Assembly (NCBI RefSeq): GCF_003334815.1
Contig: NZ_QOWO01000055.1
Length of the DNA stretch: 15,478 nt
Source: Escherichia coli
GTDB taxonomy: Bacteria > Pseudomonadota > Gammaproteobacteria > Enterobacterales > Enterobacteriaceae
Strand: one strand, 5' to 3'
Under the pieces are notes generated by a model. It worked only from the letters and a program-made list of their open reading frames with translations. It did no database searches and was not told the DNA's origin. Shown in pieces: positions 2,286 through 15,478 of this stretch (positions within the stretch are counted from its first letter, which is position 1; each line of letters begins with the position of its first letter). Both the position numbers and the translations under genes were made by a program.

Positions 2286-3025
2286 GTAAATTATTTTGGG
2301 CGATGCTCTCATTTATTACGCGTCTGCCTGTACCGCGTCGCTGGTCCCAGGGACTGGATTTCGAGCATTATTCTCGCGGTATTATTACTTTTCCTTTAAT
2401 TGGATTATTGCTTGGCGCGATTAGCGGGCTGGTCTTCATGGTGCTGCAGGCATGGTGTGGCGTACCACTGGCGGCACTGTTTAGCGTACTTGTGCTGGCG
2501 CTGATGACCGGGGGATTCCACCTAGACGGCCTCGCCGATACCTGTGATGGCGTATTTTCTGCACGTAGCCGCGATCGCATGTTGGAAATCATGCGTGATA
2601 GCCGTTTAGGCACCCATGGCGGTCTGGCATTGATTTTTGTTGTACTGGCAAAGATTCTGGTATTAAGCGAGTTGGCTCTGCGTGGCGAACCGATCCTTGC
2701 ATCGCTGGCGGCAGCATGTGCGGTCAGCCGCGGGACTGCCGCATTATTGATGTATCGTCATCGTTATGCCCGGGAAGAAGGGCTTGGCAATGTGTTCATT
2801 GGCAAAATTGATGGGCGACAAACCTGCGTCACACTCGGCTTAGCCGCTATTTTTGCTGCCGTATTATTGCCAGGTATGCATGGTGTGGCTGCTATGGTGG
2901 TGACGATGGTGGCGATTTTCATCCTCGGTCAGCTTCTCAAACGTACGCTGGGCGGGCAAACCGGCGATACGCTGGGAGCTGCTATAGAGCTTGGTGAACT
3001 GGTCTTCCTGCTGGCACTGCTATAA
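2282..3025 (+). CDS. cobS: Adenosylcobinamide-GDP ribazoletransferase (cobalamin synthase) CobS
   Basis: Polytopic membrane protein. Start chosen at ATG 2282 ([11 protein letters not shown]...), giving 247 aa, rather than the ORF-track start at 2246; the ATG overlaps the cobU stop (ATGA at 2282-2285). Confidence 0.93.
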
Positions 3026-3036
3026 AGAGACGTGAC

Positions 3037-4116
3037 ATGCAAACACTTGCCGATTTACTGAATACGATCCCTGCTATCGATCCTGCCGCTATGTCGCGTG
3101 CACAACGGCATATTGACGGGTTACTCAAACCTGTTGGTAGCCTGGGAAGGCTGGAGGCGCTTGCCATACAACTGGCGGGAATGCCGGGGTTGAATGGCAT
3201 ACCGCATGTGGGCAAAAAAGCGGTACTGGTTATGTGTGCCGATCACGGCGTCTGGGAGGAAGGGGTCGCTATTTCCCCAAAAGAAGTGACAGCCATTCAG
3301 GCTGAAAATATGACCCGCGGAACAACCGGCGTGTGTGTGCTGGCAGCACAAGCGGGCGCTAACGTCCACGTAGTTGATGTTGGTATTGATAGTGCTGAGC
3401 CTATCCCCGGGCTTATCAACATGCGTGTCGCACGAGGTAGCGGCAATATTGCTTCAGCTCCGGCAATGAGTCGCCGTCAGGCTGAAAAGTTGCTTTTGGA
3501 CGTCATATGTTATACGCGGGAGCTGGCAAAAAACGGTGTCACGCTGTTTGGTGTAGGTGAACTGGGGATGGCAAACACGACACCGGCAGCGGCAATAGTC
3601 AGCACAATCACTGGCCGGGATCCTGAAGAAGTGGTTGGGATTGGCGCAAACCTGCCGACAGATAAACTGGCTAATAAAATTGATGTTGTGCGCCGGGCGA
3701 TTACGTTGAATCAACCAAATCCGCAGGATGGCGTTGATGTTCTGGCAAAAGTGGGGGGATTTGATTTGGTCGGAATGGCTGGCGTGATGTTAGGCGCTGC
3801 TTCCTGCGGTTTACCCGTGTTGCTGGATGGATTTCTTTCTTATGCTGCTGCGCTCGCAGCCTGCCAGATGTCTCCTGCAATCAAACCGTATCTCATTCCT
3901 TCTCACCTGTCGGCAGAAAAAGGGGCGCGTATAGCGCTGTCGCATTTGGGGCTGGAGCCTTATCTCAATATGGAGATGCGTTTAGGTGAGGGGAGTGGCG
4001 CAGCTCTGGCGATGCCCATCATCGAAGCTGCCTGTGCGATATATAACAACATGGGCGAACTTGCTGCCAGTAATATTGTTCTACCGGGGAATACGACTTC
4101 TGATTTGAACAGTTAA
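3037..4116 (+). CDS. cobT: Nicotinate-nucleotide--dimethylbenzimidazole phosphoribosyltransferase CobT
   Basis: 359-aa ORF ([40 protein letters not shown]...), 11 bp downstream of cobS; matches E. coli CobT as remembered. Confidence 0.95.
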
Positions 4117-5168: not shown

Positions 5169-5244
5169 TGGCTCCTCTGACTGGACTCGAACCAGTGACA
5201 TACGGATTAACAGTCCGCCGTTCTACCGACTGAACTACAGAGGA
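5169..5244 (-). tRNA. asnV: tRNA-Asn (anticodon GUU)
   Basis: Reverse complement is TCCTCTGTAGTTCAGTCGGTAGAACGGCGGACTGTTAATCCGTATGTCACTGGTTCGAGTCCAGTCAGAGGAGCCA, 76 nt with encoded CCA and anticodon loop CTGTTAA. Gene name assigned by synteny (between nac and erfK in K-12). Confidence 0.96.
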
Positions 5245-7576: not shown

Positions 7577-7652
7577 TGGCTCCTCTGACTGGACTCGAAC
7601 CAGTGACATACGGATTAACAGTCCGCCGTTCTACCGACTGAACTACAGAGGA
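7577..7652 (-). tRNA. asnU: tRNA-Asn (anticodon GUU)
   Basis: Identical 76-nt sequence to the other two tRNA-Asn copies (reverse complement of 7577-7652). Name by synteny (between cbl and yeeO). Confidence 0.96.
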
Positions 7653-9400: not shown

Positions 9401-9476
9401 TCCTCTGTAGTTCAGTCGGTAGAACGGCGGACTGTTAATCCGTATGTCACTGGTTCGAGTCCAGTCAGAGGAGCCA
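9401..9476 (+). tRNA. asnW: tRNA-Asn (anticodon GUU)
   Basis: TCCTCTGTAGTTCAGTCGGTAGAACGGCGGACTGTTAATCCGTATGTCACTGGTTCGAGTCCAGTCAGAGGAGCCA. Name by synteny (between yeeO and yeeN). Confidence 0.96.
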
Positions 9477-12543: not shown

Positions 12544-13860
12544 TCAAGCGCGTTGACTGTCTTTCATCAACAAAGCGGTCATTGCGGAAATCAGGCATCC
12601 AGCCAGCAAATAAATGGCGACGCTATGCCAGTTCCCGGCAAAGTAAGTGATGAGTGCAGCGGCAATAAAAGGTGTAAATCCACCGCCAACCACACTGGCA
12701 ACCTGATAACCGACTCCAGCGCCACTATAGCGATAACTGGCACCAAACATTTCGGTAAACATCGGTTGTTGCACACACACCACCATGTCATGCGCAATGT
12801 TTGCCAGCATTATGGAGAAGAAAACTATCCAGAAAATAGATTGTGCTTCAAGCGCCATAAAGAAAGGAAATGCGCTCAACGTTCCGATTAACGCACCTGT
12901 GATATAAACCCTACGGCGACCAAAACGATCGGCAAGCCAGGCAAAACAGGGAATTGTCAGGCAGCTTAATCCACCTACCAGCAAACCAATATTAAGGAAA
13001 AGTTCGCGCGGTAGCCCCATATTCTGGGTTGAATAATTAAGTGCAAAGGCAGTAACGATGTACATCGTCAGCAATTCGCACAGTCGTAGCGCAATAATCT
13101 TCAGGAAAGCACCGGGATGTCGTAACAGCGCTTCGATAACCGGGATGCGTTTTTTCGCGGCAGCTTGATAATGTTGCTGTTGTTCAAATTCCGCGGACTC
13201 TTCCATGCCATTGCGCACCCACAATGCTCCCAGTACCAGTACGATGCTAAACAGGAAAGGAATGCGCCAGCCCCAGCTTAAAAACTGTTCGTCAGTCGTC
13301 ATCATACTGATCAATGAAACCAGTCCGGTTGAAAGCAGTAAACCTACACCGTAGCCAACTTGTACACCGCTACTGTAAAAGGCTTTTTTATTTTTCGGTG
13401 CACTTTCAACGGAAAGCAACGCCGCGCCTCCCCATTCGCCGCCGACGGCAAATCCCTGAATGGCACGCAGTGTCACCAGCAAAATAGGTGCCCACCACCC
13501 AATGGTCGAGAATGAAGGAAGAATACCAATCAAGGCTGTCGCGATGCCCATCATCCAGACGGTCAGCATTAACATGCGCTTACGTCCCAGTCGGTCGCCA
13601 AAGTGACCGAAAATGACACCGCCGAGCGGACGGAAAAGGAATCCGACGCCAAAGGTAGCAAATGCGGCGAGCGTTCCCATCGCCGGGCTTACTTGCGGGA
13701 AAAACTCGCGATTAAACACCAGTGCGGCGGTGATGCCATAGAGTAAAAAATCATACCAGTCGACGACGGCACCAGCGAAGCTGCCTAACGCAGCTCGTCG
13801 GGCGCGACTTAACGAAAGCGTCCCTTCATCGGGACGAGTGGAGATGAGCGTGGAGTCCAT
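12544..13860 (-). CDS. shiA: Shikimate transporter ShiA (major facilitator superfamily)
   Basis: 438-aa polytopic membrane ORF (MDSTLISTRPDEGTLSLSRARRAALGSFAGAVVDWYDFLLYG...), MFS signature GHFGDRLGRKR; length matches E. coli ShiA. Confidence 0.93.
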   Translation of the reverse strand: MDSTLISTRPDEGTLSLSRARRAALGSFAGAVVDWYDFLLYGITAALVFNREFFPQVSPAMGTLAAFATFGVGFLFRPLGGVIFGHFGDRLGRKRMLMLTVWMMGIATALIGILPSFSTIGWWAPILLVTLRAIQGFAVGGEWGGAALLSVESAPKNKKAFYSSGVQVGYGVGLLLSTGLVSLISMMTTDEQFLSWGWRIPFLFSIVLVLGALWVRNGMEESAEFEQQQHYQAAAKKRIPVIEALLRHPGAFLKIIALRLCELLTMYIVTAFALNYSTQNMGLPRELFLNIGLLVGGLSCLTIPCFAWLADRFGRRRVYITGALIGTLSAFPFFMALEAQSIFWIVFFSIMLANIAHDMVVCVQQPMFTEMFGASYRYSGAGVGYQVASVVGGGFTPFIAAALITYFAGNWHSVAIYLLAGCLISAMTALLMKDSQRA

Positions 13861-14174
13861 AATGATCCTGTTTGTACTGTCTTTTTATAATTAGTATGGA
13901 AAAGGTAACTCACATTGCCGTCGATCTATAAACGAACCTTATGAGACTACCTCGACAGAGCGCATCTGCAAATGATTTTATGGCTGATTAGCGGCAACAT
14001 GAAAAATTCGATGGAAGATGAAAGCGCAGGAGTTGCTGGTGTTGTTTAAGGATTAAGCAGAGGACCCACAGGTTAGAGATATGAAACATAAAAGTCCGCA
14101 TATGCACAAAATGGCACCCTGATGAGTCTGATAGACTGCATTGCATTATAACCAGTAGGGAGGCGAGGTTAGGT

Positions 14175-14777
14175 ATGTTTTTAGCATCATTGTTGAGACG
14201 TATTGCATTTAGTTACTACGATTATAAAGCTTATAATTTCAATATTGAAAAAACAGACTTTGTTGTCATCCATATTCCCGATCAGATTGGCGATGCTATG
14301 GCCATCTTTCCTGTTATTCGGGCGCTTGAATTGCATAAAATTAAGCATCTATTAATTGTTACGTCGACAATTAATTTAGAAGTCTTTAATGCGCTCAAAC
14401 TTGAACTGACTAAATTAACATTAGTTACAATGACTATGCAGGATCACGCAACATTAAAAGAAATAAAAAATTTAGCGAAGAACATAACACTGCAATACGG
14501 TACGCCGGATCTTTGTATAGAGGCGATGCGTAAAAAGAACCTGAAAACGATGATATTTATCAGTCAGTTGAAAGCAAAAACGAATTTTCAGGTTGTTGGT
14601 ATAACCATGAATTGCTTCTCCCCTTTGTGCAAGAACGCGTCCCGTATGGATCAGAAACTCCGGGCTCCCGTACCTATGACATGGGCATTTATGATGCGTG
14701 AGGCGGGTTTTCCAGCAGTCAGGCCAATATATGAATTGAATCGCCACGGGTTTAACAGACACCTCAGAGTCATTTAA
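14175..14777 (+). pseudogene. yeeL: yeeL-like putative glycosyltransferase (family 9 heptosyltransferase-like N-terminal region), 3'-truncated remnant
   Basis: The 200-aa ORF has an N-terminal pattern resembling GT9 heptosyltransferases (VVIHIPDQIGDAMAIFPVIRALE) but is far shorter than the ~320-350 aa typical for the family. AT-rich body until about 14600, then a GC-richer tail that runs into the IS3-family element. Position divergent from shiA matches K-12 yeeL, which is a pseudogene there. Confidence 0.5.
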
Positions 14778-15050
14778 GATGACTTAAAGAGAGGTGCCCA
14801 TGAGTGGTAAGCGTTATCCCGAAGAGTTTAAAATTGAAGCAGTCAAACAGGTTGTTGATCGCGGTTATTCTGTTGCCAGCGTTGCAACACGTCTCGATAT
14901 CACCACCCACAGCCTTTACTCCTGGATAAAGAAGTACGGTCCGGATTCTTCCACTAATAAAGAACAGTCAGATGCTCAGGCCGAGATCCGCCGTCTCCAG
15001 AAAGAGCTGAAGCGGGTTACCGACGAACGGGACATATTAAAAAAAGCCGT
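14732..15050 (+). mobile_element. IS3-family insertion sequence (possibly IS600-like), 5' portion; left boundary approximate; interrupted at 15050/15051 by IS30
   Basis: Contains an IS3-family OrfA. Upstream sequence GGGTTTAACAGACACC carries the GGACAC-like motif common in IS3-family left ends. Left end placed 60-70 bp upstream of the orfA ATG by analogy; not verified. Confidence 0.55.
14800..15050 (+). pseudogene. IS3-family transposase OrfA (HTH plus leucine-zipper protein), C-terminally truncated by the IS30 insertion
   Basis: MSGKRYPEEFKIEAVKQVVDRGYSVASVATRLDITTHSLYSWIKKYGPDSSTNKEQSDAQAEIRRLQKELKRVTDERDILKKA, then reads into the IS30 end. Programmed -1 frameshift-type heptamer A_AAA_AAA at 15039-15045. 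The ORF-track start at GTG 14794 is 2 codons upstream. Confidence 0.75.
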
Positions 15051-15478
15051 TGTAGATTCAATCTGTCAATGCAACACCCCTTTCAATTATCTCTTTCGGT
15101 GTTTTGAACTTCAGTGTCTTTCTCGGTCTGTTGTTTAGCTGAGCAGCAACCAGATCTAGTTCATGTTGAGTATATTGGGCAAGACATGTCTTTTTAGGAA
15201 AGTACTGCCGAATTAGCCCATTTGTGTTCTCATTTGTTCCCCGCTGCCAAGGACTCTGAGGATCGCAGAAGTAAACTTTAACGCCGGTGCTGACAGTAAA
15301 TTCTAGATGTCTGGCCAGTTCCATTCCTCTGTCCCATGTCAGTGATTTTCTGAGTTCTGACGGTAAACTCAGGAATTTGTCGGTAAGAGCCTGATTTACT
15401 GAGACAGAATCTTTGCCCCTGAGTCTAAGGATGATCGTATAACGTGATTTTCGGTCTACAAGTGTGGCTATATGAGAG
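15051..15478 (-). mobile_element. IS30 insertion sequence, one end (terminal inverted repeat begins TGTAGATTCAAT at 15051); continues beyond the window
   Basis: The terminal sequence TGTAGATTCAATCTGTCAATGCAAC matches the remembered IS30 inverted repeat, and the adjacent ORF on the minus strand is the IS30 transposase C-terminus. Confidence 0.8.
15058..15478 (-). CDS. insI: IS30 transposase (DDE, IS30 family), C-terminal 139 codons; N-terminus lies outside the window
   Basis: The minus-strand frame is open from the window edge: SHIATLVDRKSRYTIILRLRGKDSVSVNQALTDKFLSLPSELRKSLTWDRGMELARHLEFTVSTGVKVYFCDPQSPWQRGTNENTNGLIRQYFPKKTCLAQYTQHELDLVAAQLNNRPRKTLKFKTPKEIIERGVALTD. It contains the IS30-family signature PWQRG-NENTNGL-RQYFPK. 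Confidence 0.85.
   Translation of the reverse strand, partial: SHIATLVDRKSRYTIILRLRGKDSVSVNQALTDKFLSLPSELRKSLTWDRGMELARHLEFTVSTGVKVYFCDPQSPWQRGTNENTNGLIRQYFPKKTCLAQYTQHELDLVAAQLNNRPRKTLKFKTPKEIIERGVALTD

Follow-up and report, generated by a model that had tools for sequence, protein, structure and literature searches.

The window analysed here is a stretch of 15,478 nucleotides of Escherichia coli DNA, and positions refer to it unless K-12 coordinates are named. It contains the gene shiA and a yeeL-like pseudogene, which are divergently oriented on both sides of a spacer. In the preliminary description, this spacer was treated as a divergent shiA/yeeL control region of 314 bp, and its bounds (13861–14174) proved to be exact. 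The counterpart in K-12 (2053329–2053642) has equal length and carries no annotation. The spacer matched that of the K-12 derivative strain DHB4 at 100%, and this identity gives a simple conversion (window coordinate = 2067503 - K-12 coordinate). The window was also identical to E. coli strain RM14721 across 701 bp (100% identity). Of 5426 complete E. coli genomes, 5208 contain at least 80% of the spacer. RefSeq/PGAP showed no annotated feature inside it in the listed complete E. coli genomes. The features discussed below are collected in Table 1.

Table 1. Features of the shiA/yeeL spacer and its borders (window coordinates).
Feature	Position	Strand	Basis or remark
shiA	12544–13860	-	ATG at 13860
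shiA Shine-Dalgarno sequence AGGA (13869–13866) and start codon (13860–13858)	13858–13869	-	ACAGGA...ATGGA near-invariant in all loci
shiA 5' UTR, RyhB-responsive leader, 78 nt	13861–13938	-	published transcription start; conserved from Escherichia to Rouxiella
UCCAUA, predicted partner of start-codon UAUGGA (13862–13857)	13895–13900	-	MFE/centroid
RyhB pairing site, core GCAAUGUGAG at 13918–13909 (-58 to -49 from ATG)	13908–13922	-	RyhB complementarity
5'-terminal hairpin	13921–13938	-	covariation
shiA transcription start (G)	13938	-	published K-12 start, mapped to the window
Invariant block GGTAGTCTCAT with -10 hexamer TAGTCT (13949–13944)	13941–13951	-	cross-locus conservation
shiA -35 element TTTGCA	13967–13972	-	17-bp spacing to -10; preceded by A-tract CATAAAATCA (13973–13982)
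Mini-ORF1 MKNSMEDESAGVAGVV	13999–14049	+	in-frame ATG at 13972 gives 25 aa; straddles the putative ancestral/island junction
yeeL-proximal, E. coli-specific spacer part	14008–14174		putative right end of a yeeJ-yeeL insertion between asnT and shiA
Mini-ORF2 MKHKSPHMHKMAP	14081–14122	+	wholly in putative island DNA on the yeeL side
yeeL Shine-Dalgarno sequence GGGAGG	14158–14163	+	within the yeeL-proximal spacer part
yeeL-like family-9 glycosyltransferase pseudogene	from ATG 14175	+	far side of the spacer

Among the SMRT-Cappable-seq entries in the supplement of PMC6131387, transcription of shiA (b1981) starts at NC_000913.3 position 2053565. The same entries include a shiA mRNA that is monocistronic and extends about 34 nt past the stop codon and a shiA-amn read-through transcript (K-12 2053565–2056608, i.e., window 13938 to ~10895 on the minus strand). 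With the start at window position 13938, TAGTCT is identified as the -10 hexamer and TTTGCA as the -35 element, and the leader is 78 nt long. TAGTCT occupies positions -12 to -7, ending 6 nt ahead of the published start. The real shiA promoter was not picked up by a consensus promoter scan at the threshold of the tool. Another hexamer, TATAGA (13930–13925), considered as a -10 element with a start near -59, was rejected because the covarying hairpin upstream of that start must be transcribed and the published start lies at 13938. A search of the spacer for a Fur box gave a best match of 11/19, which was equalled in 84% of shuffles, and an Rfam scan of positions 13400–14700 with E values of up to 10 gave no relevant match.

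To compare this promoter between genera, 80 shiA loci of Enterobacterales were fetched, and conservation counts are given over 81. The motif GTA[G/A]TCTCA (GTAGTCTCA, or GTAATCTCA in a few Citrobacter/Klebsiella loci) was found in 69/81 loci at 74–125 nt upstream of the ATG. Ahead of it there is, across genera, a 17-bp spacer that is fixed in length and variable in sequence, then a T-rich block and an A-tract. The block GGTAGTCTCAT around the non-consensus -10 hexamer showed little or no variation between loci as far apart as those of Escherichia, Rahnella and Rouxiella. Such conservation exceeds the needs of a sigma-70 -10 element, and a protein-binding site may overlap it.

In most genera, the -35 element is overlapped by a palindrome AAAA(N)CGTTTT, which resembles a LacI-family operator. 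In Enterobacter it has the form GAnAAAACGTTTTnTC (palindrome AAAACGTTTT), and in locus L016, for example, it is located about 31 nt upstream of GTAGTCTCA. In E. coli the palindrome is degenerate (ATAAAATCATTTGC, window 13973–13982). To our knowledge, no regulator has been described for this palindrome at shiA.

The first ~18 nt of the shiA mRNA can form a 5'-terminal hairpin. In E. coli it is weak, with a stem of 3–4 bp (UCG 13935–13933 with CGA 13923–13921, or, in the MFE structure, GGUU with GAUC). The stem sequence varies by genus, and CAGUCG/CGACUG, UCCGU/ACGGA, GCGGC/GCCGC and AGCGUUGC/GCAACGCU were all found. In an alignment of 46 sequences, changes on both sides were seen in 5/5 pairs; double-change cells numbered 37, compared to 16 ± 3 in shuffles (0/500), and the covariation score was 0.41, compared to at most 0.19 when the partner column was slid. 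This covariation argues that the hairpin is under selection at the RNA level. By analogy with the ompA 5' UTR, it probably protects the 5' end of the mRNA. The two leaders are alike in that the hairpin starts within 0–3 nt of the 5' end and shows compensatory changes across genera. They differ in that the stem of the E. coli shiA hairpin is so short and that its 3' arm adjoins the RyhB site, and a stabilising role of this hairpin is putative.

Directly 3' of the hairpin lies GCAAUGUGAG, a perfect 10-nt complement to the RyhB seed. RNAduplex predicted pairing of RyhB nt 44–57 with positions -62 to -48 of shiA at -19.2 kcal/mol, and the site (13922–13908) corresponds to +17 to +31 of the mRNA, inside the transcribed leader. 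At least 7 contiguous RyhB-complementary nucleotides were present at the equivalent position in 51/81 loci, including those of Escherichia, Citrobacter, Enterobacter, Lelliottia, Leclercia, Pseudocitrobacter, Kosakonia, Rouxiella and others. The site was absent from the loci of Klebsiella, Raoultella, Rahnella, Tatumella and Pantoea in the same set.

In the leaders of Klebsiella and Raoultella (L042, L045, L047–L049, L056, L057, L061–L063 and L069), the hairpin is followed instead by GCGUCUCAUUCC, which is complementary to AUGGAC. Judging by these leader sequences, shiA may be controlled differently in the two genera.

An energy-only scan of the whole window for RyhB targets left the true site outside the top matches. 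Several stronger chance duplexes appear in the window, so RNAduplex energy alone is not discriminating. One of the stronger duplexes involves GUACUGGGAGCAUUGUGGGUGCGCAAUG (13209–13236, minus strand, codons ~209–218 of the shiA CDS), which is complementary to RyhB nt 39–62 at -29.7 kcal/mol; it is probably due to chance, since other parts of the window give duplexes of equal strength.

The structure of the start region was predicted for a 108-nt RNA. In both the MFE and centroid structures, GUGAGU pairs with GCUCAU (+12 to +17) and UCCAUA (13900–13895) pairs with UAUGGA, and the probability of the AUG being unpaired was 0.13–0.17. The UCCAUA/UAUGGA helix was paired in 85% of cells across genera, and its only changes were C-to-U wobble changes. 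The predicted fold appears consistent with the published inhibitory structure, which masks the ribosome-binding site and the first codon. The leader MFE (-13.4 kcal/mol) was no better than that of shuffles (z = +0.99), RNAalifold gave no consensus fold from the true 5' end, and in silico blocking of the RyhB site raised the unpaired probability of the AUG merely from 0.13 to 0.21. The inhibitory structure therefore rests on the published experiments and not on the present computations.

A terminator scan found a sole terminator-like site, which lies within the shiA CDS. A terminator-like hairpin CGUCCC-GAUGAA-GGGACG followed by CUUUCGUU is present at 13819–13836 (minus strand, shiA codons 9–14). 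It was rejected as a candidate element: it occurs only in Escherichia and is not conserved, and the N-terminal residues 8–17 are variable in other genera.

RyhB is the sRNA of iron starvation, and its activation of shiA translation was reportedly described by Prevost et al. 2007, Mol Microbiol 64:1260 (cited in PMC4231740, PMC4666370 and PMC8896160). RyhB raises both the translation and the transcript level of shiA, as reporter fusions (GFP, lacZ) together with Ribo-seq and qPCR have confirmed (PMC4231740, PMC4666370, PMC4676285, PMC8896160). Hfq binding was detected within 20 nt of the RyhB site (PMC3458560). According to the published model, RyhB and Hfq would bind the leader and open an intrinsic fold in which the ribosome-binding site and the start codon are hidden; ShiA synthesis would be switched on, providing shikimate import for siderophore production. 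In terms of the leader delimited here, RyhB and Hfq would pair at +17 to +31 of the mRNA, and this pairing would remove the lower helices of a weak inhibitory fold and expose the start region.

The locus is the same as that of the published RyhB-shiA system and does not differ from it in kind: it has GCAAUGUGAG at -58 to -49, the 78-nt leader and a predicted fold in which the AUG is paired. The present analysis adds a description of the covarying hairpin, of the near-invariant -10 block and of the distribution of the RyhB site among genera. The published model is also similar to the anti-antisense activation of rpoS by DsrA, RprA and ArcZ, where the 5' UTR inhibits itself by folding and the pairing of an sRNA, together with Hfq, to the upstream arm of the fold makes the ribosome-binding site accessible. 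However, rpoS has a leader of several hundred nt with a stable long hairpin, whereas the shiA leader is short, A/U-rich and thermodynamically weak. The shiA promoter and the RyhB-activated leader are thus known elements, and their activation has already been published. The preliminary description missed them: the real control element of the spacer, made up of the promoter and the RyhB-responsive 5' UTR of shiA, is on the opposite strand to the mini-ORFs listed there.

It is possible, although rather unlikely, that two undescribed layers of control also act on shiA, namely a putative transcription factor (e.g., a repressor responding to shikimate or aromatics) and an element stabilising the 5' end, both acting together with RyhB. 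This reading is based on the near-invariance of the 11-bp GGTAGTCTCAT block, the palindrome at the -35 element and the covarying hairpin abutting the RyhB site, and it gives the mini-ORFs no role.

A very improbable explanation of the conserved block is that the leader is longer and begins with GGTAGTCTCAT as an RNA element, which pairs with AUGGACUCC (containing the start codon) or with the RyhB site and so forms a three-way switch. The complementarity between GGTAGTCTCAT and the AUG region is striking: 98% of cells were paired, and one pair covaried (GC 27, GU 15, AU 4, no A-C), and a transcribed block would make a 13-bp helix with AUGUGAGUUACCU. However, the published start (2053565) is downstream of the block, so the block is not in the mRNA. 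It is also placed exactly as a -10 hexamer should be, with the 17-bp spacer to a conserved T-rich -35 element. If it were transcribed, the model would have RyhB closing the AUG (unpaired probability from 0.91 to 0.07), which is the opposite of the published activation. The upstream TAAAAT that this explanation needs as its -10 element is not conserved in Enterobacter or Rahnella, and the combination of TAAAAT with the block as RNA partner of the AUG was rejected on the basis of the transcription start and the wrong sign of the predicted regulation.

The preliminary description had placed two ATG-initiated mini-ORFs in the spacer and considered them most likely to be chance ORFs. Both exist on the plus strand. 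The second, MKHKSPHMHKMAP, was located exactly, whereas the first, MKNSMEDESAGVAGVV, had been assigned to 14010–14060 and actually begins and ends 11 nt upstream of that. In 2000 dinucleotide-preserving shuffles of the spacer, a mean of 2.2 ATG-initiated ORFs of at least 13 codons was obtained per strand, and the probability of at least two such ORFs on one strand was 0.75. The energy of the duplex with the anti-Shine-Dalgarno sequence was -1.7 kcal/mol for ORF1, -3.5 kcal/mol for ORF2 and -11.8 kcal/mol for yeeL; the median for the background of 566 ATGs from the window was -1.9 kcal/mol. A Shine-Dalgarno sequence is lacking ahead of ORF1 and weak ahead of ORF2 (AGG 9–12 nt before the ATG).

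Variation was evaluated in an alignment of 10 E. coli-type spacers, namely those of the window, eight RefSeq E. coli genomes and contig L004. This contig is labelled as a 'Candidatus Nanosynbacter' MAG and carries an E. coli-type spacer and a ShiA that is 100% identical to that of E. coli; its label is almost certainly the result of binning contamination. In the alignment, 3/122 sites were variable in 13861–13982 vs. 21/193 in 13983–14174. Variable sites numbered 4/51 in ORF1 and 4/43 in ORF2, compared to 3/31 and 5/52 in the non-ORF spacer. The density of variable sites in the mini-ORFs thus equals that of the flanking spacer, with no sign of purifying selection on the peptides. The changes within E. 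coli were mostly amino-acid-changing (M5L and A10T in ORF1, H9Y and M11I in ORF2). Both frames were open in 10/10 of these spacers, which carries little weight because the spacers are 97–100% identical.

More distant relatives were also compared. Escherichia sp. MOD1-EC7003 (L005) carries a 1-nt insertion that shifts the frame of ORF2, and 9 nt are deleted from its ORF1. In a divergent Escherichia lineage that keeps the shiA-spacer-yeeL arrangement (L095, 89% identity), the ATG of ORF2 is changed to AGG and a 1-nt insertion is present, while ORF1 shows six nonsynonymous and four synonymous differences. A conservation check in Enterobacteriaceae, which had been proposed in the preliminary description, revealed that the mini-ORFs are not conserved and that their DNA is missing upstream of shiA in other genera. 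Lack of conservation and of ribosome-binding sites in relatives, the outcome that had been named there as refuting, was what we found. The shuffles, the poor Shine-Dalgarno sequences, the flank-like variability and the disruption of ORF2 in relatives support the view that these are chance ORFs.

The origin of the ORF DNA was examined from the ends of homology upstream of shiA. Homology extends to about -122 (window 13982) in other Escherichia species, Enterobacter and Lelliottia, and farther, to between -147 and -158, in E. albertii and Citrobacter. The Citrobacter locus has a tRNA-Asn gene (asnT) with a classic terminator ~220 nt upstream of shiA. The left end of the Citrobacter asnT-shiA spacer matches K-12 asnT and its right end matches window positions 13865–14007; homology with the Citrobacter locus stops 4 nt beyond the 3' end of the tRNA. 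The gene order in K-12 is asnT-yeeJ-yeeL-shiA. Given the adjacency of asnT and shiA in Citrobacter, a segment of ~8.7 kb (yeeJ-yeeL) would have been inserted in E. coli. Synteny suggests that the segment is an island and places its right edge at approximately 14008–14020.

ORF1 begins in DNA of the ancestral type and finishes in DNA of the island, and its ATGAAAAAT is the reverse complement of the conserved TATTTTTCAT block. It would have arisen by the juxtaposition of ancestral and island DNA, and ORF2 would lie within fast-evolving island DNA. The ~150 bp next to shiA (13861 to about 14007) would be ancestral, whereas the ~165 bp next to yeeL would contribute nothing beyond the ribosome-binding site of yeeL and, presumably, its promoter. 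Homologues of yeeL with 62–66% identity have nothing in common upstream of the start codon.

The homologues in other contexts (L092/L093, and L094 at 2501–3376) are located beside a ClpB-like AAA+ gene or in a P2-like prophage; the prophage-borne one sits between the tail-sheath/tube and tail-fibre genes. This suggests that the YeeL glycosyltransferase gene is mobile cargo. In the window, yeeL (14175–15478) is truncated after ~188 codons and followed by a fragment of an IS3-family transposase. In RM14721, a group II intron (ltrA) is found just beyond, and in O157:H7, IAI39 and others, the gene is intact and encodes 350 aa.

The window contains three tRNA-Asn(GUU) genes (5169–5244, 7577–7652 and 9401–9476); K-12 has a fourth, asnT, on the far side of yeeJ. 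In other Escherichia species, a tRNA-Ser(CGA) gene is present ~350–430 nt upstream of shiA. The neighbourhood is a tRNA-Asn cluster whose inserts vary between species. Islands associated with tRNA-Asn genes occur in Enterobacteriaceae, e.g., at asnT, asnW and asnV. Judging by synteny, the ~8.7 kb between asnT and shiA, with the yeeJ adhesin and yeeL glycosyltransferase genes, would be a similar island.

It is extremely unlikely that ORF2 (or ORF1) is a translated uORF or leader peptide in the yeeL mRNA that tunes yeeL expression. ORF2 is on the strand of yeeL, 53 nt upstream of its start, its frame and weak AGG are those described above, and its peptide has three His among 13 residues. However, the frame is broken in L005 and its ATG is lost in L095, where yeeL is kept, and its substitutions are mostly nonsynonymous and as dense as those in the adjacent spacer. 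No similarity to the mini-ORF DNA was found upstream of the yeeL homologues in other contexts (L092–L094), and yeeL is a pseudogene in both K-12 and the window. Among the entries of the SMRT-Cappable-seq tables (PMC6131387), there is no transcript start in K-12 20533xx–20534xx. No terminator-like hairpin was found on the plus strand of the spacer, including the part between ORF2 and yeeL.

True attenuation leader peptides (hisL, trpL, pheL, ivbL) are encoded in the transcript of the regulated gene, have a Shine-Dalgarno sequence and runs of regulatory codons, are conserved, and are followed by alternative terminator/antiterminator hairpins. The mini-ORFs resemble them in that they are short, start with ATG and lie in the spacer ahead of a gene. 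They differ in all that follows: both are antisense to the shiA leader, their anti-Shine-Dalgarno energies do not point to a functional ribosome-binding site, no terminator comes after them, and they are not conserved where the downstream gene is kept (L005, L095).

The chance that a 52-aa minus-strand ORF (14146–13988) or the 25-aa extended ORF1 is a real small protein gene overlooked by RefSeq is practically negligible: the 52-aa frame is a 'hypothetical protein' in older GenBank records (e.g., ECP_1953 of E. coli 536) and the 25-aa frame was given the same name by JGI gene callers on 270 contigs, but the former has no Shine-Dalgarno sequence (-2.2 kcal/mol), is broken by the L005 and L095 indels, is rich in Cys, Leu and Phe, as is typical of translated AT-rich non-coding DNA, and has its ATG upstream of the shiA promoter, where the entries of the SMRT-Cappable-seq tables report no transcription start, PGAP does not annotate either frame in the listed complete genomes, and an NCBIfam search with the 22-, 25- and 52-aa frames gave no match. 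The mini-ORFs are very probably chance frames antisense to shiA that encode neither a leader peptide nor a small protein.

Taken as a whole, the spacer is very probably a composite of the ancestral shiA promoter and RyhB-responsive leader on the minus strand and island DNA on the yeeL side, with mini-ORFs that arose by chance. Two spurious small-ORF candidates are thereby removed, and the spacer is assigned to textbook sRNA-mediated translational activation. What is new is descriptive only, namely the near-invariant -10 block, the palindrome at the -35 element outside Escherichia and the covarying 5' hairpin. The comparison across Enterobacterales shows which members retain the RyhB site, and the -10 block, the promoter palindrome and the 5' hairpin are possible leads for later work on the regulation of shiA.
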